This document shows positions 2,010 to 61,698 of a stretch of 64,000 bases of DNA, piece by piece (the stretch's first letter is position 1; every line of letters starts with the position of its first letter). The stretch is from positions 48,715 to 112,714 of the forward strand of contig JAJQGT010000009.1 in assembly GCA_021201135.1 (NCBI GenBank), in the 5' to 3' direction. Source of the stretch: Oscillospiraceae bacterium (lineage in GTDB: Bacteria; Bacillota; Clostridia; Oscillospirales; Ruminococcaceae). The notes beneath the pieces were generated by a model, which saw only the letters and a list, made by a program, of their open reading frames with translations, did no database searches and was not told the origin of the DNA. The position numbers and the translations under genes are program-made.

Positions 2010-3092
2010 TCATGTCTGGAGTGTAAATGATTCTTCATATCTTTTCTTAACAATTCCTTCCACACACTGATATGCCTTAGCAAATACAAGAGCGCCGCCT
2101 GTTGTCCCGATACATACGAGTATGTAAGAAACCAATGTCTCACCCGCGATAGTTGCCAAGCCTAATTTATCAATTACTCTGAAAACCATCATATGTGCAA
2201 GATATATTTCAAAGCTTACGCCACTTACAAACTTGCTGACTGGATTACTCAAAAGTTTTGTATCCGGACACAAGGCTCCTATTATCATCATTCCATACCC
2301 AATTATGTTCTTTATCAGTCCAACTATCGTCTCTGTTGTTCCTTCACCCGAAAACGGGATCATATATACAACGGCGAATCCGACAAGTACAAACACAACG
2401 CCAAGCCAAGTCTTTCTCTCGAAGAATCTAACTATCGAATCTTTATACAAATACATCAAACCGCCAAGGACGAAATAGCACATCCATCTGAACATTAAAC
2501 TGCTACCGGAATCGAAATACTCACAACACAAAACGTAAATGACGCAGGTGATTGCAAAGCTGAACCATGCCCTTTTCTTGTTCCAAATCAGATATACAAA
2601 GAACGGGAAAAGAATATAGAATCCAAATATAATGCCGAGAGTCCATCCAACTCCTATCACACTCATGCCAGATGTTGTATAAAACCCAAACATCAAAGTT
2701 AGATTTGCAAATGCTTCTGCAATACTTCCGGCTGATATACCGCCGTCAAATACTAAACTTACAACCAAATCAATCAGAACAAGCAATGCAAAAAACGGAA
2801 GTATTCTCTCGTATCTTCTGCTGTAAAACTTATTCAAACTAATCTCATTATTCTTGATTCTTTCGTAATAGCCACAGCACATCGAAAAGCCGCTCAAGAT
2901 AAAGAACAGCTGAACAAATCCTCCCATCTGTGCTATCAGGGTATTAACTACATAGTCTGCAGTACCCCCCCACACAGCAACATCAAAACCAATATTTGCT
3001 CTGACGTGCATACAGATGACACCGATTGCTGCTATTGTGCGAAGAGCATCTAAGTTGTTGTATCGCTGTAGTCTTGTAATTTGAGTATCCAT
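2010..3092 (-). CDS. Membrane O-acyltransferase (acyltransferase-3 family, OafA/WecH-like)
   Basis: 360-aa polytopic membrane ORF with N-terminal NNLDALRTIAAIGVICMH motif. Located in the EPS locus. Carries an in-frame G7 tract at 2965-2971. Confidence 0.85.
   Translation of the reverse strand: MDTQITRLQRYNNLDALRTIAAIGVICMHVRANIGFDVAVWGGTADYVVNTLIAQMGGFVQLFFILSGFSMCCGYYERIKNNEISLNKFYSRRYERILPFFALLVLIDLVVSLVFDGGISAGSIAEAFANLTLMFGFYTTSGMSVIGVGWTLGIIFGFYILFPFFVYLIWNKKRAWFSFAITCVIYVLCCEYFDSGSSLMFRWMCYFVLGGLMYLYKDSIVRFFERKTWLGVVFVLVGFAVVYMIPFSGEGTTETIVGLIKNIIGYGMMIIGALCPDTKLLSNPVSKFVSGVSFEIYLAHMMVFRVIDKLGLATIAGETLVSYILVCIGTTGGALVFAKAYQCVEGIVKKRYEESFTLQT
2965..2971 (-). repeat. G7 homopolymer (C7 on plus strand) inside the acyltransferase CDS, in frame
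   Basis: Plus strand reads gcagtaCCCCCCCacac. Sense strand reads GTG TGG GGG GGT ACT GCA (VWGGTA). Confidence 0.95.
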
Positions 3093-14685: not shown

Positions 14686-15623
14686 TCATGAAGCGTTCCA
14701 ACGTTTATTTTTTATTTTTGTTCTTAACTTTAAACACATGCTTGCGACATGCGGAAGGAAGGTTGAAAAATACAAGGGCACAACTTTAAAATTATGACCT
14801 TTCAAAATTGCTTCTTTAAAGTACTTCTTCGCATCTTCAAAAGCTTCATTCCTCAGACATAATTTTCCCAGATATTCATTGTATACAGCGAATATTTTTG
14901 CAGTACCCCCCCACATGACGAGGCTGACTCAAGCAACTTATTCATTACCATTTTTGTACCTTCCTCTCTTTTGCGCCAATTTCCGCTGATTCTTTGATGA
15001 CTGTCATCACAATGTAGCGTAACAAGCGGTTTTCTTATATATTTAACACTTCCGAATTTGCAGACGCGAAGCCACATATCAAAATCCTGTCTGGCAGGAA
15101 GGGCAGTATCAAACAAACCGGCTTTATACAATGCTTCTTTCTTTACAGTTACAGCACTGGTCTGATTAACAATATCCTTAAAGATTAAATCATTATATAT
15201 GTAGCCGTCCTCATGGGTATGGCTCGTAATCCTGCTAGTTCCGTCAGAAAACAGGGCGATAAGATCGCAGGATGTCAATGAAAAAGAACCAGACATATAT
15301 GCCTTCGACACTTCTTCAAGATATGTTTCATCCCACTCGTCGTCGCTATCCAAAAAAGCTATGACCTCGCCGTTGGCATTCTCTATCCCCGTATTCCTTG
15401 CCGCATTTGCCCCAAGGTTGTCGGAATGAAAAATAAACCTCACCCGCTCGTCCGCCATCTCGGAATACTCTTTGATTTCGTCCTTCCATTCAGAGCCCGC
15501 TTCATTATCATCGACAACAATAATTTCAAAGTCATTGTATGTCTGGTTCAGAACACTTTTGATAGAGCGTTCAAGCATCTGGTGATGAGTTTTATAAGTT
15601 GGTATAATAACAGAAATAAGCAT
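14686..15623 (-). pseudogene. Glycosyltransferase family 2 split by a frameshift at a G7 tract (catalytic part 14853-15623, C-terminal helical part 14686-14916)
   Basis: MLISVIIPTYK, VDDNEAGS and LDSDDEWD motifs. The reading frame ends 50 nt after the G7 tract. The -1/+2 frame continues as WGGTAKIFAVYNEYLGKLCLRNEAFEDAKKYFKEAILKG..., a typical GT2 C-terminal extension. Confidence 0.65.
14906..14912 (-). repeat. G7 homopolymer at the GT2 frameshift point
   Basis: Plus strand reads gcagtaCCCCCCCacat. G8 (or G5) would fuse the two GT2 ORF pieces. Confidence 0.95.
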
Positions 15624-15727
15624 AATTCCATCCTTCATTCATAGCTTCAAACACAGTTTTTAGTACAAAAAGTCATCTTTTCATCCGTAAAATTCAAGCA
15701 CTTACTGATGTATCTGCAACGGTTGCA

Positions 15728-18689: not shown

Positions 18690-18787
18690 CAGTGCAATTT
18701 GTTATTTTATTGAGGTTTGGAAATTGTGTACAAACAAAACTTTGTGGACGAAACCCAAATTATCAATTTTTACGGCGGAGCCGTGTA

Positions 18788-18794
18788 CCCCCCC
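18788..18794 (-). repeat. G7 homopolymer about 100 nt upstream of the EPS promoter -35
   Basis: Plus strand reads gtgtaCCCCCCCacaaaa, in an intergenic region. Confidence 0.95.
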
Positions 18795-18898
18795 ACAAAA
18801 TATCAGGATATTCAACAGTTACTCAAATTCAATCACAATTTTGTGGAATATGTTTTTATACAAGTACGGAAATTTTTGCCGCAGATTTTTTTCAGTCA

Positions 18899-23074: not shown

Positions 23075-24385
23075 TTACAGAATATAGCTCGTCACGCAAT
23101 CGTACCAATGGACAAACCTATTCCCGTTGACGGTGATGATCTCGTTCTCCGGCAGGAGCTCGCTCCAGGGCTTCTTATACTTCCCTATCGCCCAGGTGTC
23201 GGCGTTGAAGCGGCGCCAGAGGACGGTTTTGCCATTCTCGTCAAGATACTGCTCGCTGGCGACGCCGTCCTGGTAGTTCTCGATGTCGACGACACAGACT
23301 GTGTCGTAAACTTTGCCGCCGATGGTGACGGTGTAGCGTCCGACAACATCAAGGACATTCTTCGAGCCGGTGCAGGTGATATTGTCACCGTCCCTCCGGA
23401 TGATGCCCTTCGGGGCGAGGTTCACCTCGTTGCCGCAGTTATCCTCGCCGAAGCCCCAGTTATCGAGGAAGTCGTCGCCGTCAAGGAAGGTGTAGAGCTT
23501 GCGGACGCCGTCCTCAATATGACTTTCGGCTAAGATTCTTGAGTGCGTGTCGGTGAGCTGAGCGACGAAGGTGCGGCAGACGGGGTTGTCGCCGGTGGCG
23601 TTTTGGTCCATCGGGTCAAATTCGGTTGCGTGAATCTCGACACCCTCAATGCCGTGAACCACAGCTTTACCGATGACTTCCATCATGACCTCCTCGGTCT
23701 TTTTCTTTTCGGGGAAGTCGTACATCGCCCAGCTGAGCTTTTCGCCGATTCTCGGAACGACGAACCAGCCCATCATCTCCTCCCACCTGACCGGGAACGG
23801 CTCGAGCGGGGACTTTTCGATTCTGTAATTCGGAATGAGCTCCGGCATGATGTTTAGTGTGTTGTTCATAATAACCTCTTCTTTCTTGGGGTTAAGCCGT
23901 TCGGGGAACTTCCCTCGCAAGCGGCTTTTCGCGTAGTGCAGGCGGCTTTTGACGGTGCCGACGGGGATTCTGAGTATCCTCGCGATATCCGCCTGCGGAA
24001 GCTGTTTGAGATAGTAGAGCCGGAGGATTTCGCTGTCGCGGTCCGAGAGCTCACCGAGTGCCTCCGAGACGTCGCTCCTGAGCGAGATTCCGTGGATTCC
24101 GATTGAAAGCTTCTCCTCGGGGACGCTTTCGATATCCACGAGCTCGAGCTCGCGTGCCATCTCGCGGTAGCGGTCGCGGCACTTGTTGCGGGCGATGCCG
24201 ATAATCCAAGCCTTGAAGCTGTCGCGGTTCTCAAGCCTCTCAAAGCCGAGATACGCCGCAAGATAAACCTCCTGCAGGACGTCTTCGGCTTCGCTTACCG
24301 GGATTTTGAACTTGACGTATCGTTCAACAGCGTTCCTGTTCTCCCGCAAAAGCCTTTCAAATTCTGTCTGCAAAGCAGTTTCCAA
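23075..24385 (-). CDS. ECF-type sigma-70 family factor (about 165 aa) fused to an uncharacterised, non-membrane ~270-aa C-terminal domain
   Basis: GGAGGTGAGG RBS followed by a TTG at 24385. Region 2 is DVLQEVYLAAYLGFERLENRDSFKAWIIGIARNKCRDRY. Region 4 is LSDRDSEILRLYYLKQLPQADIARILRIPVGTVKSRLHYAKSRL. The same frame stays open for about 270 more codons. The track's longer ORF reads through tRNA-His. Confidence 0.8.
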   Translation of the reverse strand: METALQTEFERLLRENRNAVERYVKFKIPVSEAEDVLQEVYLAAYLGFERLENRDSFKAWIIGIARNKCRDRYREMARELELVDIESVPEEKLSIGIHGISLRSDVSEALGELSDRDSEILRLYYLKQLPQADIARILRIPVGTVKSRLHYAKSRLRGKFPERLNPKKEEVIMNNTLNIMPELIPNYRIEKSPLEPFPVRWEEMMGWFVVPRIGEKLSWAMYDFPEKKKTEEVMMEVIGKAVVHGIEGVEIHATEFDPMDQNATGDNPVCRTFVAQLTDTHSRILAESHIEDGVRKLYTFLDGDDFLDNWGFGEDNCGNEVNLAPKGIIRRDGDNITCTGSKNVLDVVGRYTVTIGGKVYDTVCVVDIENYQDGVASEQYLDENGKTVLWRRFNADTWAIGKYKKPWSELLPENEIITVNGNRFVHWYDCVTSYIL

Positions 24386-24473
24386 AGGCCTCACCTCCGA
24401 ATACTTATTAAAACCGGTTTCACTTATATAGTCGCGCAAATCGCGAAAAAGGTTCAAGCACTTTTCAGGAAAA

Positions 24474-24507
24474 GTGCAAAAAAGCGGCTTCAAATCGAAA
24501 CCGCTTT
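24474..24507 (-). terminator. Intrinsic terminator after tRNA-His
   Basis: Minus strand has an AAGCGG...CCGCTT stem followed by TTTTTT. Confidence 0.5.
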
Positions 24508-24512
24508 CATTC

Positions 24513-24590
24513 TGGGGTGGATAATCGGACTCGAACCGATGGTCTTCAGAACCACAATCTGACGCGTTAACCAACTACGCTATACCCACC
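24513..24590 (-). tRNA. tRNA-His (GTG)
   Basis: 78 nt on the minus strand: GGTGGGTATAGCGTAGTTGGTTAACGCGTCAGATTGTGGTTCTGAAGACCATCGGTTCGAGTCCGATTATCCACCCCA. Anticodon loop is TTGTGGT. It has the extra 5' G (G-1) and an encoded CCA. Confidence 0.93.
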
Positions 24591-31636: not shown

Positions 31637-31730
31637 AAAGGCTCAGAACTCGGAAGCATGATATATTTACATAATATAAATATAGCACAAGCGAGCAGTT
31701 TTCGGCAACAATTCCGTGCCGGAGGCACTA

Positions 31731-31737
31731 CCCCCCC
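31731..31737 (-). repeat. G7 homopolymer in the pilus-operon leader
   Basis: Plus strand reads cactaCCCCCCCacgc. It lies about 35-40 nt downstream of the predicted transcription start. Confidence 0.95.
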
Positions 31738-31779
31738 ACGCTATTTATAGTATATCAAAATACGACTTTATGTATGTAC

Positions 31780-37462: not shown

Positions 37463-40336
37463 TCAGAGGGTTGCCGTTGTTAAGAGTCTCCCCGTCATCT
37501 CCCGATACATCTTCATCAGCATCGCCACAATCTCCGCCTCCGGCATATCCTTCGGAATCCCATAAGCCGCCGCCACCGCCGCATCATTAGCCTGATGCGC
37601 CTTAACGAGCTCTGGATAAAGATACATATGCTCGCCATACATATCAGCAAGGCTTGCCTCTGGATACTTTGCACGAGCATCGAGAATAGCTTGAGCCGTC
37701 TTTTCGATTTTCGCCTTTTGCTCATCAGTAGGGCTACACCATGGGAAATTGTTGTAGACGACATTGATAGAATAGCAATATCTCATTTCAAGTCTTCCAC
37801 AGACAGCTCTTGTCCAAGCCATATGCACGCTTGAAGTTAAAACGCCAAAATGATACAAGGTTGCATTTTGACTGATTTTAACACGATTACTGCATAGAAC
37901 ATCTGGAGTCATAAAGCCCATTGGAATATATAATCGCTTTTCTGAAGTGATTTCCGGTATAACTATATAGCTATCAGTTGGAAAATTCTCAACGTGAAAC
38001 TTTGTAGGAAAGTTTGCAATTTTTCTTGTACCTTCACTTTTACTCGAAAGGCGATATTGGCGCACAGAATCAACACGCTTTAGGCACTCTGACATACTCA
38101 TTAACTCGCTTGGTGGGCAATGCTTTAGCCATAAACAATAGCGCGGTTTACTGTTTAGAAATTCGTCTGCTCCATACCATAGCTTAAAATACTTTTCTGC
38201 CTTCGGCTCTACCTTGAGAAATTCGTCTTTTTCTTCCTCAGTAAACAGATAAAATCCATTGTCAATCGGCTTATTACCGATTCCAAATCTAGGAACATCA
38301 CAAATTGGCTTGCTTCGGCTTTCGACGAAGACATTATCGGCATCGATAAGATAGCCGTTGATATTTTTGACTTCTTGCACTTCGCCGTTTTCGTAAATTC
38401 TTTTTGGCTTACTGCTAAATGCATAGCTAAATCCTACTATAACGCAATGGACATGAGCTTTCATGCTGGCTTCGCTGTCCCAACGGAAAGTTCTGTGGGC
38501 AAAGTCTATGTGCACACCATCTTCATATAGTGGTTTCCATAGGTTTGCCACACTTTCGCCCTGACAAATCGAGTTTGTCGAAACTAGTGCGGCTATTGTG
38601 TTTGTGCCTTTGATAAGGTCTGCACACTTTTTGTACCACCCAGAAACATAGTCAAGATTACCGACATTCTTCCATTCCTTGCCGAAGACAGATAAAAGGT
38701 CATCCTTTTGCTCTTTCGACATCATTCTCGCACCCACAAATGGTGGATTTCCCATTATGAAGTCTACATTACGGTCGTCGTGTTCTTTGATAACATCGTT
38801 CCAGTCTAATCGGAGGGCATTTCCTTCTTTGATAAACGCGTTGGTTTTCAGGGGCAGGAAGTCGAGGGATTGGTTGATTATTTTTTCAGTTTCGCGCATC
38901 ATCTGGCTTTCGGCTATCCATAGGGCGGTTTTGGCGACGGAGACGGCGAAGTCGTTGATTTCGATGCCGTAGAACTGCCCGATGGAGACCTTGATGAGCT
39001 CTTCTTCGGAGACGCCGCCGAAGACAATCTGATTCTCTATCTGCTTCTTGCGGAGACTGATGAGCTCGGCGATGACCTTGTTCTCAAGCTTTCGGAGCGA
39101 GACATAGGTCTCGGTCAGGAAGTTGCCCGAGCCACAGGCGGGGTCGAGAAACTTGAGACTTGCAAGCTTGTTCTGATAGTTTGTGAGCTTCTGCTTTCTC
39201 TTTTTTAGGTCCTGCTCCACCATGATTCCGTCAAGCTCAGCTTTCAGGTCGTCGAGGAAAAGCGGGTCGATGACCTTGTGGATGTTTTCGGGCATGGTAT
39301 AGTGCATGCCGCCGTTGCGACGGGTTTCGGGGTTCAGGGTGCTTTCGAAAATCGCACCGAAGATGGTCGGGCTTATCTCCGACCAGTCAAAACCAGAGCT
39401 CGCATCGCGCAAAAGAAGATTCCTGATTTCATCGTTGAACGGCGGGATGACGTGCTTCTTTTCGAAAAGACTGCCGTTGACATAGGGAAATTCCGCCAAA
39501 AGCGGCTCGTCATCCTTGAGGAAAGGGTCGCGCTCGTCCATCGGCTGATTCAGGACGTCAAAGAGGTTCTGGAGCGCCTTCCTCGTGTGCTGGGTGTCGA
39601 AGCTACGGAGATACTTGTTGAACTTGAGGTGCTCACCGAAAATGTCGGCGTCCTCGGCATAAAGGCAGAACACGAGACGGACGCAGAGGACGTTCAAGTC
39701 TTGATATGTCCGTTCATTGTGCGGCTCGGGATATTGCTTGAGTAGCGCATCGTAAAGCTCGCCGACAATCTTGCCCGCCGCCTGCGATATTTCAAGCTCA
39801 CGCTCGGTGTTGTCCGCCTCAATGTCAACGAGGAAGTCGAGACGGTGGTATTCTTTTTCAAGGTCTTTGAGCTCAATCACTTCCGGCTCGCCGTACGAGT
39901 CCGCCATGTCATAGACGTGGAAGGTTTGGAAATTGCAGATGACGAGCCAGCGGTTCTTGTCGAAATAGCCGAGGCTGTCGTCGTATCTCTTCGCCTGCTC
40001 AAACGGTGTTTTCAGGGTGCCGTCCGATTGCTTTATCTTCTCGGTGAGGCTTTTATTGATGCTCTTCTGTTCAATCAGGACTTTGGTCTTTGGAATTCTC
40101 GCGTCGATAAAGCTCGTGTGCCCGAGCTGAACTTGCTCCTCGAAGATAACGTATTCCTCGGGGTGCTCCACGCCGTAAACGTCCCGCAAAAGAGAAGTCC
40201 AGAAGGATTGACTTTGCCCCTTCTCATAGCCCTTCCCTTCCCAGAACTCCGCAAACTTCTTTGCATTAACTTTCCTCTGAGTATCCGTCACAATAATCCC
40301 GTCCTTCGCAGTCAGTATAAATACATTATACCCCAA
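37463..40336 (-). CDS. MmeI-family type IIL restriction-modification enzyme (single-chain endonuclease + N6-adenine methyltransferase + target-recognition domain)
   Basis: 957 aa. N-terminal D...EXK nuclease motif (SFIDARIPKTKVLIEQKS), SAM motif I LDPACGSGNFL, motif IV GNPPFVG, and a long C-terminal TRD. Confidence 0.85.
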   Translation of the reverse strand: MGYNVFILTAKDGIIVTDTQRKVNAKKFAEFWEGKGYEKGQSQSFWTSLLRDVYGVEHPEEYVIFEEQVQLGHTSFIDARIPKTKVLIEQKSINKSLTEKIKQSDGTLKTPFEQAKRYDDSLGYFDKNRWLVICNFQTFHVYDMADSYGEPEVIELKDLEKEYHRLDFLVDIEADNTERELEISQAAGKIVGELYDALLKQYPEPHNERTYQDLNVLCVRLVFCLYAEDADIFGEHLKFNKYLRSFDTQHTRKALQNLFDVLNQPMDERDPFLKDDEPLLAEFPYVNGSLFEKKHVIPPFNDEIRNLLLRDASSGFDWSEISPTIFGAIFESTLNPETRRNGGMHYTMPENIHKVIDPLFLDDLKAELDGIMVEQDLKKRKQKLTNYQNKLASLKFLDPACGSGNFLTETYVSLRKLENKVIAELISLRKKQIENQIVFGGVSEEELIKVSIGQFYGIEINDFAVSVAKTALWIAESQMMRETEKIINQSLDFLPLKTNAFIKEGNALRLDWNDVIKEHDDRNVDFIMGNPPFVGARMMSKEQKDDLLSVFGKEWKNVGNLDYVSGWYKKCADLIKGTNTIAALVSTNSICQGESVANLWKPLYEDGVHIDFAHRTFRWDSEASMKAHVHCVIVGFSYAFSSKPKRIYENGEVQEVKNINGYLIDADNVFVESRSKPICDVPRFGIGNKPIDNGFYLFTEEEKDEFLKVEPKAEKYFKLWYGADEFLNSKPRYCLWLKHCPPSELMSMSECLKRVDSVRQYRLSSKSEGTRKIANFPTKFHVENFPTDSYIVIPEITSEKRLYIPMGFMTPDVLCSNRVKISQNATLYHFGVLTSSVHMAWTRAVCGRLEMRYCYSINVVYNNFPWCSPTDEQKAKIEKTAQAILDARAKYPEASLADMYGEHMYLYPELVKAHQANDAAVAAAYGIPKDMPEAEIVAMLMKMYREMTGRLLTTATL

Positions 40337-56894: not shown

Positions 56895-56930
56895 AAAATA
56901 AAAAAGAACAATCCACAAGGACTGTTCTTT
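56895..56930 (-). terminator. Intrinsic (bidirectional-looking) terminator
   Basis: GAACAATCC/GGACTGTTC stem flanked by an A-run and a T-run. Confidence 0.55.
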
Positions 56931-56951
56931 TTAATGAAATATAATACTAGA

Positions 56952-57515
56952 TTATCCCTGGATTGCAGAACCGCAATACTCACATTCGCCCACTTGTCCT
57001 TCTTGAATGGTGTTCATTCCACCACATCCGCTGCATTTTACAGATACAAGCTTCTGGCCTGTAACGGGAGCTGATGAAGTCTGATTCGTGCTTTGCGGAG
57101 TAGTTCTGGGGCTTGAAGAACCGCCGACAAAGATAGAATTTGAATTCTGATCAATGTAGGCATTGACGAAATATCCTCTCTTAATCATCAGTTCTAAGTT
57201 CTTCTTAACAACATCTTCAGATGTATTCAGGCTTGCTGCTAAATCAGGGATGAAGCCACCTTGTGTGGAGATAGCCGAAACATATACCTTGAAATTGCTG
57301 ATAAGCTTGCTATTTTTGCGGGAAACAACGGTACACCATATACCGATTGCCAAAATAATTATGCAGAAAAGCAAGAAGCCAAATCCGAATTCCTGAAAAT
57401 CAGAAAAACATACAATTATCATAAGCAGAGAAAACGCATCTACACACGCCCCGATTATCAGCGTTACCTTGCTTGCAAGTGAATCTACAACGAGTTTTGT
57501 TTTTGACTTATTCAT
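56952..57515 (-). CDS. Membrane protein (2 TM) with cytoplasmic winged-helix-like segment and C-terminal zinc ribbon
   Basis: 187 aa. Two hydrophobic helices, then DLAASLNTSEDVVKKNLELMIKRGYF, a Ser/Thr-rich linker, and CSGCGG...CEYCG. Confidence 0.6.
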   Translation of the reverse strand: MNKSKTKLVVDSLASKVTLIIGACVDAFSLLMIIVCFSDFQEFGFGFLLFCIIILAIGIWCTVVSRKNSKLISNFKVYVSAISTQGGFIPDLAASLNTSEDVVKKNLELMIKRGYFVNAYIDQNSNSIFVGGSSSPRTTPQSTNQTSSAPVTGQKLVSVKCSGCGGMNTIQEGQVGECEYCGSAIQG

Positions 57516-57565
57516 AATAATAACTCCTATCTAAATTTTTATGTAGGGATACTTTCCCATAGGTA

Positions 57566-58867
57566 CTATTGCAACTTTTCGCCACATTCAGGGCAGAACT
57601 TAGGCGAGCCCTCAATTGGTGCATTGCACTTTGGACAGTTTTTTGAAAGGGTGCCTCCACACTCAGGACAGAACTTCACCTTTGGTGATACGGCTGCTCC
57701 ACAATGAGGACAAGAAATCGGGACATCCTCATTACAATTTGGGCAAGAGGTAGAACCTTCTGGAATATCTGCACCACAACTCTTACAATGGTTTATTCTT
57801 CGCCCACACTCGGGACAGAATTTCGTCGATTTGTTTATCGTTCCGCCACAAGCTGAACACTTAAGAATGTTCTCTTGCTTCTTAGTCGCCTCTGTATCGC
57901 AACCACAAACACCACAGAACCGCTGAGTAGAAGGAATTAGCGAATGACACTTCGGACATTCTTTCTTAGATGCTTCATCAGTGGATGTCTTAATTTCTTG
58001 TGCCATTCCACCGAATCCAGCACCTACAGCATTACCCATCCCAAGCCCCATGCCAATACCCATGCTTGCGCCAGCTACAGATGAAGCAGTTGAGCCTGAA
58101 TTTTTAGCTGCACCCTCGAGAGTGTCAAATGAGCGCTCTTGCTGATAACTATAGCCGATTATGTTCATTTCAGCACGCTTTGCTAAAGCGTTTTTCAGTT
58201 GCTGGACAGCAGAATCGTCTTCAGGCACGCTGATTTCGTTAACATAGAAGGAAACAAGTTCGATACCGTAATCATCCATAGTCGGTTGAATTCTTTCCTT
58301 CATATACTGTGAAAGCTCATCAATATAGGCGTTGATTTCGAGAATGCTTATCTGCTTATGTACTAAATAAGACGAAATTGAATCCTTGACTTTTGTAACA
58401 TAGAGGGATCTAAAATACTTGGTGACAGAGTTTTTATCAAAGCTACTCATTGTTCCGACTAACTTGACGAGGAACTTCCTTGAATCAGAGATTCTTATGC
58501 CAAAAGCACCGTTAGAGCGGACGGGCACGAAAATGCCGTACTTAGGGTCTTGCAACTGAATAGGAGTTGGTGTTCCCCACTTGACATCCAGATTATACGC
58601 CTTGTTGATGTACCAAACTTCTGCTGTAAAAGGCGATCTGCCACCAAACGGCAGCTTTACAACGTTTATGAGAAGGGGAATATTTGCAGTGTCAAGCGTA
58701 TGCCTTCCACTACCGAAAACATCGTAAACCTTGCCACCTTTAACAAGTATCGCTTCCTGTGACTCATTGACAACAAGCTGAGTCCATGTGCCAAGCTCTT
58801 CACTCGGATATTTCCAAGCAAAGACATCGGGACCGCCATTATATTTAATTACTTCTACAATAGCCAT
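57566..58867 (-). CDS. SPFH/band-7 (YdjI-like) domain protein with five C-terminal zinc-ribbon units
   Basis: GGAGGG RBS followed by the ATG at 58867. MAIVEVIKYNGGPDVFAWKYP... is the SPFH-type N-terminal half. Five CxxC-N10-14-CxxC units follow (CPKCHS...CGVCG, CSACGG...CPECG, and so on). Confidence 0.75.
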   Translation of the reverse strand: MAIVEVIKYNGGPDVFAWKYPSEELGTWTQLVVNESQEAILVKGGKVYDVFGSGRHTLDTANIPLLINVVKLPFGGRSPFTAEVWYINKAYNLDVKWGTPTPIQLQDPKYGIFVPVRSNGAFGIRISDSRKFLVKLVGTMSSFDKNSVTKYFRSLYVTKVKDSISSYLVHKQISILEINAYIDELSQYMKERIQPTMDDYGIELVSFYVNEISVPEDDSAVQQLKNALAKRAEMNIIGYSYQQERSFDTLEGAAKNSGSTASSVAGASMGIGMGLGMGNAVGAGFGGMAQEIKTSTDEASKKECPKCHSLIPSTQRFCGVCGCDTEATKKQENILKCSACGGTINKSTKFCPECGRRINHCKSCGADIPEGSTSCPNCNEDVPISCPHCGAAVSPKVKFCPECGGTLSKNCPKCNAPIEGSPKFCPECGEKLQ

Positions 58868-58899
58868 TAATTTTCCCTCCATAAAAAAATCACAACTAC

Positions 58900-58931
58900 A
58901 TTGTACCCCCCCCCGCAAACCCTTTTGTCAA
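58900..58931 (-). promoter_or_regulatory. Promoter whose -35/-10 spacer contains a G9 tract (spacer 20 nt as sequenced)
   Basis: Minus strand reads TTGACA-aaagggtttgc-GGGGGGGGG-TACAAT, about 33 nt upstream of the ATG at 58867. Confidence 0.5.
58906..58914 (-). repeat. G9 homopolymer in the promoter spacer
   Basis: Plus strand reads ttgtaCCCCCCCCCgcaaac. Confidence 0.95.
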
Positions 58932-58980
58932 TACTTTTTTCAACCTTTTTTAACAAACGGTTAGGTTTTAGTATTAGAAC

Positions 58981-59005
58981 AACAAAAACCGCCCCATCGG
59001 GGCGG
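58981..59005 (-). terminator. Intrinsic terminator
   Basis: Minus strand reads CCGCCCC-GAT-GGGGCGG followed by TTTTTG. Confidence 0.7.
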
Positions 59006-59013
59006 TCAGGTGG

Positions 59014-59169
59014 TCAATCTTTCAAAATTTCATCCATCGCCTCTTTAAAAGAGGCATATCTTTTGTACTTTTCGGGATTCTCTTTCATCTCAGCAAGCTC
59101 GTTGAGGGCTTCGGTTGTCTCAGGATTCGGGGCTTCTCGCAATTCGAGAACCTGTTCTCTATTTTTCAT
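59014..59169 (-). CDS. 51-aa protein resembling the C-terminal part of RelB/DinJ-type antitoxins
   Basis: MKNREQVLELREAPNPETTEALNELAEMKENPEKYKRYASFKEAMDEILKD. Its ATG overlaps the ANT(6) 3' end by 11 nt, and the terminator follows. Confidence 0.35.
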   Translation of the reverse strand: MKNREQVLELREAPNPETTEALNELAEMKENPEKYKRYASFKEAMDEILKD

Positions 59170-60117: not shown

Positions 60118-61698
60118 TTAAATTATATCATCCGAACCGTTGCTGTTGCCGGAGCCGCTGTCGGAATTTGAGCTGTTGCCGTTGCCGAAGCCAAAGTTTC
60201 CGAAGATGTCGCCCCAAGGTGATGTTGAACTGCCCGACTGACCGTCAGAGCCGGAATTTGAATCAGAGTTGGAATCCGAATCGGAATCGGCGCTCGAATC
60301 TGTTGTATCAGAATCGGGAAGAGCCGACTGGGTGGTTGAGCCGACGGTTACGACGATTACTCTTGTCTCGCCGTCTCTGTAGACCTCAAGGACGAGCTCG
60401 TCGCCGACTTCGAGTGATGCAACATAGTTCGAAAGCGAGCTTGCACCGGTGACTTCGGTGTCGTCAGCCTTAAGGATGATGTCGCCGACCTCAAGACCCG
60501 CTTCGTCTGCGGGAGCACCTTCGGTCACGCTGTAGACAACCGCTCCCGAAGTGATACCGGTGCTGTAGTAAACGCTGGTGGTCACGTCGGTGACGGTGAC
60601 GCCGATGTAGCTCTTCTCATAGGTACCGGTCTCGATGATGCTGTAGACTATCTCCTTGACGGTGTTAATCGGGATTGCAAAGCCGATGTTGTCGATGGAC
60701 GCCTCAGAAGAGGAACTGCTCGAATACTTCGCGTTGGTGATGCCAATCACTTCGCCGTACATGTTGAAGAGTGCGCCGCCCGAGTTACCGGAGTTGATGG
60801 CACAGTCTGTCTGGATGAGCTCCATGGTGGTTCCGGTGGAAAGAGTTACCGAGCGGTCAAGAGCACTGACTATTCCCGCAGTGAGGGAGAATGTGAGCTC
60901 TCCCAAGGGGTTGCCGATTGCAACTACCGAGTCGCCGACATTGAGTGCATCGGAGTCGCCGAGAGTTACGGTGCTGAGATCTTCAGCTTCGATCTTCAAG
61001 ACTGCGATATCGTTACTTTCGTCATAGCCGACGAGGGTTGCCGAATAGCTTTCGCCGTTATAGAGGCTGACGGTTATCGAATCGGAATCCTCAACGACAT
61101 GGTAGTTTGTGAGAATATAGCCGTCGGAAGAGATTATGAATCCCGAGCCGGAAGCCGCCGATGTGGTCGTATAGCCGAAATAGTTGGTGGTAATCGAGGT
61201 TGTGATACCGACGGTGGCGTTGACGTTATTTGCGTAGACTTCCGCCGCTGTCATCTCCTCGCCCGCCTCAACCTCGTTGAGGACAACCTCCGAGCTGTGA
61301 CTGCTCGTGTTGATGACCGTTGCCGAAGAAGCGTTGGTTGCGCCCGAGGATGTCGGAATCACCGAGCCGTCGGAGGTGACAAGAGCCGTCACGGATGCGC
61401 CGATTCCTCCGCCCAAGATTGCGCAGACGAGCGCCAATGCAATCATCGCTCCCCAAGGGGTTCTCGAGGACTTCTCCTTCTTCTGCTTCTTTTGCTTCTT
61501 CTGAGTCGGCTGTTCGTAGGCGACATATTCCGCCTTCGGCTGAGAATTGCTCTGCCACTGATAGGTGTAGTCGCCCTGATATGCCGACTGCTGAGCTGCG
61601 CCGGTATTCTCGGTGCTTTCAGTATTCTCGCTTTGTGAGACGGTTTCGCTTGTGGTTTCGCCGGTTACTTCATTAATATTGTCATTGTAGTTATCCAT
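60118..61698 (-). CDS. htrA: HtrA/DegP-family serine protease (S1C) with PDZ domain, N-terminal TM and Ser/Asp/Gly-rich tail
   Basis: GSGFIISSDGYILTNYHVV, DIAVLKI, GNSGGAL and a PDZ region (GAVVYSVTEGAPADEAGLEVGDIILK). Confidence 0.9.
   Translation of the reverse strand: MDNYNDNINEVTGETTSETVSQSENTESTENTGAAQQSAYQGDYTYQWQSNSQPKAEYVAYEQPTQKKQKKQKKEKSSRTPWGAMIALALVCAILGGGIGASVTALVTSDGSVIPTSSGATNASSATVINTSSHSSEVVLNEVEAGEEMTAAEVYANNVNATVGITTSITTNYFGYTTTSAASGSGFIISSDGYILTNYHVVEDSDSITVSLYNGESYSATLVGYDESNDIAVLKIEAEDLSTVTLGDSDALNVGDSVVAIGNPLGELTFSLTAGIVSALDRSVTLSTGTTMELIQTDCAINSGNSGGALFNMYGEVIGITNAKYSSSSSSEASIDNIGFAIPINTVKEIVYSIIETGTYEKSYIGVTVTDVTTSVYYSTGITSGAVVYSVTEGAPADEAGLEVGDIILKADDTEVTGASSLSNYVASLEVGDELVLEVYRDGETRVIVVTVGSTTQSALPDSDTTDSSADSDSDSNSDSNSGSDGQSGSSTSPWGDIFGNFGFGNGNSSNSDSGSGNSNGSDDII

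Follow-up and report, generated by a model that had tools for sequence, protein, structure and literature searches.

A run of nine G residues (G9), read on the minus strand, fills part of the spacer between a consensus -35 hexamer and a near-consensus -10 hexamer in front of a two-gene operon coding for an SPFH/zinc-ribbon protein and a smaller partner protein. The explanation that we favour, and in which we place middling confidence, is that the G tract, lying in the spacer of the sigma-A-type promoter of an acquired SPFH/zinc-ribbon cassette, is prone to slippage, that its length controls the spacing of the two hexamers, and that the promoter now stands in a weak or OFF state. On the sequence evidence the G9 promoter is a plausible further case of homopolymer-in-spacer switching, and its reading as a phase-variable promoter is partly supported. 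The main rival is a crippled promoter whose tract is drifting.

Structure of the G9 promoter

The elements of the promoter and of the operon are listed in Table 1, together with the copies of a short G7 motif (s1 to s4) described below. Positions refer to the window, the whole stretch of 64,000 nucleotides that was analysed.

Table 1. Coordinates of the G9 promoter, the SPFH cassette and the G7 motif copies in the window
Feature	Position	Strand	Description
A-rich stretch TTAAAAAAGGTTGAAAAAAGTA	58932..58955	minus	directly 5' of -35; from the sequence
-35 hexamer TTGACA	58926..58931	minus	6/6 consensus
Spacer AAAGGGTTTGCGGGGGGGGG (AAAGGGTTTGC + G9)	58906..58925	minus	20 nt, read from the sequence
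AAAGGGTTTGC part of the spacer	58915-58925	minus	11 nt
G9 tract within the spacer, TGC-G9-TAC	58906-58914 (run at 58906)	minus	one mismatch to GTGGGGGGGTA
-10 hexamer TACAAT	58900..58905	minus	5/6 consensus
Predicted 5' UTR	58868..58893	minus	about 26 nt, from the predicted start site
T7 run	58883-58889	minus	in the predicted 5' UTR, between -10 and RBS
RBS GGAGGG	58875-58880	minus	20 nt 3' of -10
SPFH (Band_7_1) protein	57566..58867	minus	433 aa, C-terminal double zinc ribbon array
187-aa partner protein	56952..57515	minus	two N-terminal hydrophobic helices, C-terminal CxxC...CxxC ribbon
Upstream intrinsic terminator, GACCGCCCC-GAT-GGGGCGGTT + T-rich tail	58987..59007	minus	9-bp stem, 7 GC pairs
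Downstream intrinsic terminator	56901..56932	minus	14-bp stem, ends the two-gene operon
SPFH cassette (terminator, G9 promoter, two genes, terminator)	~56906..59029	minus	from sister-lineage comparison
51-aa ORF, 3' remnant of relB antitoxin gene	59014..59169	minus	74% nucleotide identity
s1, TGT-G7-TACTGCA	2963..2973 (run at 2965)	minus	in frame (VWGGTAD), acyltransferase-3 gene, polysaccharide locus
s2, TGT-G7-TACTGCA	14904..14914 (run at 14906)	minus	frameshifts family-2 glycosyltransferase gene
s3, TGT-G7-TAC	18786..18796 (run at 18788)	minus	intergenic
s4, CGT-G7-TAG	31729..31739 (run at 31731)	minus	intergenic

The G9 promoter has no TG extended -10 element; the dinucleotide at -15/-14 is GG, and TG is found at this place in 8 of the 12 best promoter sites of the window. 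The A-rich stretch resembles an UP element and might act as one. Transcription is predicted to start near G58893, 7 nt past the -10 hexamer. The ATG of the SPFH gene, at 58867, follows the GGAGGG ribosome binding site at a distance of 7 bases. A longer, 450-aa frame opening at TTG 58918 was rejected as the gene, because the match in 80 orthologous loci opens at the equivalent of ATG 58867, where the start codon is preceded by a GGAGG-type site. The T7 run of the predicted leader did not differ between the two populations compared below.

On its own the G9 run is only mildly unusual: the window has one where 0.12 are expected, and at least one turned up in 11 of 100 shuffled sequences. No run of G9 or longer was present in 539 kb of related Clostridia loci. 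The hexamer pair TTGACA-N15-22-TACAAT occurs twice in the 64-kb window against 0.05 expected, and the placement of the G9 run between the hexamers is therefore not due to chance; the second occurrence is an ordinary promoter with a 17-nt spacer.

Promoter spacing in the window

All -35/-10 pairs of the window having at least 5/6 matches in each hexamer and a spacing of 14-23 nt were scored. Seven sites matched sigma-A-like consensus at 12/12 positions, and all of them had spacers of 16-17 nt. Pairs with a perfect TTGACA and a score of 11/12 were mostly spaced by 17 nt, with two at 19 nt. The G9 site, likewise 11/12, was the sole such match with a 20-nt spacer. Since the 12/12 matches are all at 16-17 nt, G9 represents three bases too many and G6 would restore 17 nt; the corresponding spacers are 18 nt for G7, 19 nt for G8, 20 nt for G9 and 21 nt for G10. 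Sigma-70-type promoters with a 20-21-nt spacer are weak. Because the strongest matches have 16-17-nt spacers, tract length should set the strength of the promoter.

The sequence-only reading had described a 20-nt spacer, too long for efficient use, that tracts of G6 or G7 would bring to 17-18 nt. Coordinates, hexamers and spacer length all proved correct as read on the minus strand, the arithmetic for G6 and G7 holds, and the judgement that 20 nt is too long agrees with the spacing of 7/7 of the window's 12/12 matches.

A gene for an MmeI-family restriction-modification enzyme (37463-40336, minus strand) has a promoter at 40352-40325, TTGACAAAATTTTGCCTTGGGGTATAAT, of similar layout to the G9 promoter (TTGACAAAA...TTTGC...G run...TA); its spacer, however, is 16 nt long and contains just G4.

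The SPFH operon and its boundaries

A Pfam scan identified the SPFH domain as Band_7_1 (PF13421, E=7.7e-51, residues 22-231), and the protein also carries four double zinc-ribbon repeats, in agreement with the earlier claim that an SPFH/zinc-ribbon gene lies downstream of the tract. Set against more than 2,000 homologues, the protein is full length. The gene for the 187-aa partner begins 50 nt past the SPFH gene. A homologue of the partner is located 3' of the SPFH gene in many orthologous loci, many of them with one extra gene in between, and the pair is for this reason regarded as a conserved module.

The operon is bounded by terminators on both sides. The upstream one ends the transcription unit consisting of ANT(6), an adenylyltransferase gene, and the relB remnant; to judge by its stem it is strong and insulates the SPFH operon from read-through. 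Past the downstream terminator, the enolase gene has its own promoter (TTTACA-17-TATAAT). The 110 nt that separate the upstream terminator from the ATG contained no promoter match with a 16-18-nt spacer. With terminators on both sides and no other match between them, the G-tract promoter is the sole candidate for a promoter of the operon. The claim that the tract sits in the spacer of the operon's promoter is thus upheld to this extent: by sequence match, it lies in the only promoter-like site of a terminator-bounded cassette.

Origin of the cassette

A sister lineage was located through ANT(6) proteins more than 90% identical to that of the window. Its gene order is YpeB, HtrA, ANT(6), relB, yafQ, enolase, with the relB-yafQ toxin-antitoxin pair intact. 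The window is 91% identical to it at the nucleotide level as far as the ANT(6) stop codon, and homology resumes, at 96%, at position 56905, 130 nt 5' of the enolase gene. At the place of the cassette the sister lineage carries the last part of relB followed by the yafQ toxin gene, and the 51-aa ORF of the window shares 74% nucleotide identity with the part of the sister relB that codes for its C-terminal half. Because homology to the sister lineage breaks there, the segment 59030-56905 is interpreted as a cassette standing in place of the yafQ gene. In the light of these comparisons the SPFH operon is a recently acquired cassette. The G9 promoter lies entirely within it, away from its junctions.

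In a third relative, 91% identical in nucleotide sequence over enolase, the same site is occupied by a DNA methylase/HTH module. The interval between ANT(6) and enolase (its contents are seen in loci L217-L222 and L095) is regarded as a hotspot for accessory modules, since relatives hold different modules there. The cassette itself was absent from the enolase-anchored relatives.

A G tract upstream of the SPFH gene was found in none of the 80 orthologous loci (61-74% protein identity), from which it follows that the G run is not required by the SPFH family. No upstream synteny was shared among these 80 loci, and an orthologous promoter for comparison was found neither there nor in the relatives and the sister lineage described above. 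Neither cassette protein matched a PADLOC defence model.

Length of the G tract in other populations

The species is rare in public data: exact-protein look-ups with the SPFH protein, the 187-aa protein and the 51-aa ORF product yielded no more than two Logan contigs, one each from runs SRR15221304 and SRR15221305. A search for SPFH homologues gave nothing above 75% identity, and no match came from scanning metagenomes for the promoter with its gap left variable. A cluster look-up added one 553-nt ENA fragment from a different species; the G tract was absent from the 57 nt that this fragment contains 5' of the start codon.

The SRR15221304 contig has G9 and is 100% identical to the window over 6.1 kb; the contig and the window are probably the same data. 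The contig from the other run, SRR15221305_2949, has G10, corresponding to a 21-nt spacer, and differs from the window by two SNPs (at 60611 and 56871) in 6.58 kb plus the one extra G. Over the 20.9 kb that could be compared, the two populations showed 27 SNPs and two indels, and they diverge by about 0.05-0.3%. One of the two indels is at the G9 tract, and the other is an A5/A4 difference beside another G-tract site. The G7 tracts s1 (2965) and s3 (18788) had the same length in both populations. Unchanged G7 tracts next to a varying G9/G10 tract fit a mutability that rises with tract length.

The G9 tract is an indel hotspot between near-identical populations, as slippage predicts, in n=2 samples represented by consensus assemblies. 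Length polymorphism in relatives, proposed with the sequence-only reading as a check, was therefore observed, as G9 versus G10 in two consensus assemblies of n=2 independent populations. Alleles of G6-G8, the lengths at which transcription is predicted to rise, were not present among the window and the two Logan contigs, all of them consensus sequences. The spacers seen were of 20 and 21 nt only, and the G10 allele is further from the optimum than G9. As to the proposed phase variation, the layout of the promoter and the polymorphism of the tract speak for it; the lengths seen are only those predicted to be weak or OFF, and an ON allele did not appear.

The proposed switch and the possibility of a silenced promoter

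According to the spacer-switch model, with G9 or G10 the hexamers would be separated by 3-4 bp more than is optimal and turned out of register, RNA polymerase would bind poorly, and the SPFH operon would be weakly transcribed or OFF. Replication slippage to G8, G7 and G6 (19, 18 and 17 nt) would then raise transcription stepwise. The outcome would be a heritable and reversible switch, acting at the level of the population, for a membrane-scaffold or stress module. Against this model, only lengths predicted to be weak or OFF were seen, the second allele, G10, moves away from the optimum, the independent populations are two in number, and a homopolymer miscall is possible in consensus assemblies. 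The tract moreover differs by one mismatch from a G7 motif of constant length, so that its cause may be unrelated to spacing, and a single T-to-G change in a copy of this motif would yield G9 with the spacing still at 20 nt.

The main rival holds that the promoter of a horizontally acquired cassette is decaying or has been silenced, that the G run grew in length or was created by a T-to-G change, and that G9 and G10 represent neutral drift. Any expression would then be weak residual activity or read-through of the terminator. We consider this rather unlikely, though it accounts directly for the fact that both alleles seen are off-optimal and on the weak side, and it suits a cassette that recently replaced yafQ at an accessory-module hotspot. 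The frameshift caused by the G7 tract of a glycosyltransferase gene (s2, see below) is moreover found in both populations, indicating that G tracts in this genome can sit fixed in the OFF state. What argues for the spacer switch over decay is the state of the cassette: both genes are intact and of full length, whereas an operon silenced for good would be expected to decay, and both hexamers are still at or near consensus. Substantial read-through is also made unlikely by the strong upstream terminator.

A recurring G7 motif

The 11-mer GTGGGGGGGTA occurs in four exact copies in the window, all on the minus strand, and the G9 tract matches it with one mismatch. At up to one mismatch there are five matches against 0.37 expected, and 0 of 100 shuffled sequences reached five. 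The five G runs of at least 7 in the window are all on the minus strand and have similar flanks. The exact copies, s1 to s4, contain exactly 7 G preceded by T and followed by TA, and three of them have the full TGT...TAC; s1 and s2 share a 17-mer, TGTGGGGGGGTACTGCA. Homology among the five G-tract sites is confined to 11-17 nt and is not part of a larger repeat. The numbers of G runs in the window are 138 for G4, 11 for G5, 0 for G6, 4 for G7 and 1 for G9, with G8 absent, as compared to counts decaying smoothly in other Clostridia loci (1201, 255, 41, 2 and 2). The sequence at s4 (GCGTGGGGGGGTA) and that at the G9 promoter tract (GCGGGGGGGGGTA) have a single difference, and one T-to-G change would fuse G+T+G7 into G9, leaving the spacer still at 20 nt.

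Copy s3 is situated about 100 nt 5' of the TTGACA-17-TATAAT promoter of a sugar-transferase gene, and s4 between a Cna_B/SpaA pilin-like gene and a gene for a 1404-aa LPXTG surface protein. In the glycosyltransferase gene containing s2 (14686-15638, minus strand), a tract of G8 or G5 restores a protein of 316-317 aa, of which homologues cover 97%; the frameshift was confirmed by a homologue search with the G8-restored query. A near-identical Logan relative (P0244, 97% identity) is recorded with the same glycosyltransferase frameshift. A representative-library search with the 76-aa ORF past the glycosyltransferase G7 was uninformative.

Both intergenic copies are followed by TA and a minus-strand hairpin with a TCC loop: ACGGC-TCC-GCCGT, with a 5-bp stem, at s3 (18760-18800) and GTGCC-TCC-GGCAC at s4 (31705-31740). 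The stems of the two hairpins differ on both arms with pairing kept. The A5/A4 indel of the other population is located just past the s3 hairpin. A 499-aa protein encoded at 23075-24574 on the minus strand contains sigma-70 regions 2 and 4 and a long C-terminal extension. Its gene adjoins those of a sortase, a Cna_B pilin-like protein and an LPXTG protein, and the 499-aa protein may serve specifically to regulate this surface-protein locus.

These loci can be looked at in two ways: they may carry contingency-type G tracts, which would favour phase variation, or they may share a sequence-specific motif with another purpose. In the second interpretation the G9 tract would be a mutated member of a strand-specific motif of fixed length, 11-13 nt, (T/C)GT-G7-TA(C/G), marking surface-polysaccharide, LPXTG adhesin and SPFH loci. 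That unrelated loci carry an exact G7 within the same flanks would call for a sequence-specific process, either a recognising protein or an installing mechanism. We hold this interpretation to be quite doubtful. If it were true, a targeted system of contingency or regulation, so far undescribed, would be at work, and the promoter tract would be the case in which one base change freed length variation. The G7 motif, if real genome-wide, would be a subject in its own right.

Applied to the promoter, the corresponding explanation is that the G run is a copy of GTGGGGGGGTA recognised by a protein or process, for example a regulator of surface loci, which represses or remodels the promoter; variation in length would have come as a by-product when a T-to-G change fused the runs. 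Such an explanation is improbable in our estimate. It derives its appeal from the excess of matches over expectation and over shuffles, on one strand only, from the excess of G7 without G6, and from the exact G7 with T before and TA after in all four copies. The single base separating s4 from the promoter tract and the position of the four copies at polysaccharide or LPXTG-protein loci add to this. Against these stand the small number of instances (n=5) and the fact that two of the copies are within coding sequence, where the run encodes Gly-Gly. A candidate binding protein was not found, nor was a conserved partner element at a fixed distance from the G7 motif. Rfam gave no family at the gathering threshold for the three intergenic G-tract regions, with only chance-level matches at E<1. 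A metagenome scan for TGT-Gn-TACTGCA returned mostly scattered single matches, consistent with chance, and the same 17-mer occurs sporadically in unrelated metagenome contigs.

Other explanations of the long spacer

Near-consensus -35 and -10 hexamers separated by 19-20 bp are the hallmark of promoters activated by the MerR family, such as merT, zntA and bmr, and the G9 promoter with its 20-nt spacer shares this feature. A long-spacer promoter that needs an untwisting activator of the MerR type, or another sigma factor, would have a tract whose length is fixed and functional; to this we give little credence. Unlike the MerR promoters, the spacer has no dyad operator (only CAAA/TTTG arms of 4 bp and no inverted repeats), and its length is not fixed. 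There was no MerR-family gene among the 26 neighbouring proteins scanned with Pfam. The 21-nt spacer given by G10 in the other population would disturb a geometry tuned to an activator. The MerR-type model was rejected for want of both a dyad operator and a MerR gene among the 26 proteins scanned. As regards another sigma factor, the consensus sequences of sigma-54, sigma-B, sigma-F, sigma-H, sigma-I and ECF promoters were compared with the G9 promoter by eye, and none appeared to fit it. SPFH/PspA-type modules are stress-induced through sigma-W in Bacillus subtilis (PMC8581546), which is a point in favour of this possibility.

A pure sequencing artefact, in which the true tract is shorter or invariant and G9/G10 is a homopolymer miscall, is unlikely, and we assign it a very small probability. 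Homopolymers of 9-10 G are error-prone, contigs of only about 8 kb suggest modest coverage, and the window and SRR15221304 are not independent if, as their identity indicates, they are the same data. Nevertheless, two separate runs each gave at least nine G, the G7 tracts were reproduced exactly in both runs, and SRR15221305 represents a distinct strain with SNPs scattered elsewhere. An inverton was ruled out, as no pair of inverted repeats brackets 58900-58931.

Comparison with known systems

Poly-G tracts occupy the region from -35 to -10 in Treponema pallidum tp0126 and Neisseria porA, the optimum spacer being 17 nt (PMC7864442). In T. pallidum tprL the majority allele is G9, which is weak, and the active allele is G8 (PMC7864442). 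The G9 promoter resembles tp0126, tprL and Neisseria meningitidis porA in that a G homopolymer (about 8-11 nt in those genes) fills the spacer of a sigma-70-type promoter. The tracts of those genes vary by +/-1 within and between isolates; here the difference is G9 versus G10 between populations. A homopolymer of at least about 8 nt between recognisable sigma-70-type hexamers, typical of the porA/tp0126 class, is present in the G9 promoter (11 nt + G9). Natural lengths giving 17 +/- 1 nt also belong to that class, whereas only 20-21 nt were seen here. Switching of tp0126, tprL and porA was demonstrated with reporters and fragment analysis, whereas the present case is known from sequence alone. 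Those genes encode outer-membrane antigens of host-restricted pathogens, whereas here the tract precedes the gene of a cytoplasmic or membrane-scaffold SPFH protein. The earlier remark that the gene class is unusual for such a switch is borne out by this comparison of a YdjI-type SPFH scaffold with antigens. The host is unusual for such a switch as well, being an uncultured spore-forming member of the Clostridia with Oscillospiraceae metagenome-assembled genomes as its closest named relatives.

The cassette has a counterpart in the pspA-ydjGHI (samGHI) operon of Bacillus subtilis, where an SPFH gene of the Band_7_1 type, as we take YdjI to be, stands beside a gene for a small membrane protein. 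The SPFH protein of the cassette is of the same Band_7_1 type and likewise has a small membrane protein as neighbour, the 187-aa zinc-ribbon partner. This is the only other gene of the cassette, in contrast to pspA and two membrane partners in the YdjI/SamI module, and zinc ribbons are fused to the SPFH protein. The B. subtilis operon is under sigma-W control; a repeat tract plays no part in it. Membrane partners recruit YdjI, which is a soluble SPFH protein, and this protein links PspA to the membrane (PMC8581546).

Most documented examples of repeat-driven promoter switching concern surface antigens and come from a small number of host-adapted pathogens. A confirmed spacer switch would add to these an uncultured spore-forming bacterium of the gut-type Clostridia and a module for membrane scaffolding or stress on a mobile cassette, and would suggest bet-hedging over membrane physiology or over whatever role the SPFH/zinc-ribbon pair has. 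A switching promoter would also provide a natural ON/OFF handle on the function of this widespread pair, of which Clostridia contain more than 2,000 close homologues.

The G7 tracts recall the poly-G phasome of Campylobacter and Helicobacter, in that tracts of G7 or longer occur at surface loci and one of them frameshifts a glycosyltransferase gene. The tracts of those bacteria have varied lengths and unrelated flanks, whereas four of the tracts in the window are exactly G7 and share their flanks. Unlike those contingency tracts, the G7 tracts of the window did not vary between the two populations. As a separate observation, two metagenome contigs, L140 (minus strand, 69-710) and L166 (299-1547), represent one locus from two samples. 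It contains a gene resembling those of cytosine-5 DNA methyltransferases, with five or six runs of G7-G9 at Gly-Gly codons. The reading frame shifts at several of these runs, and at one tract the two samples differ, G7 against G8.
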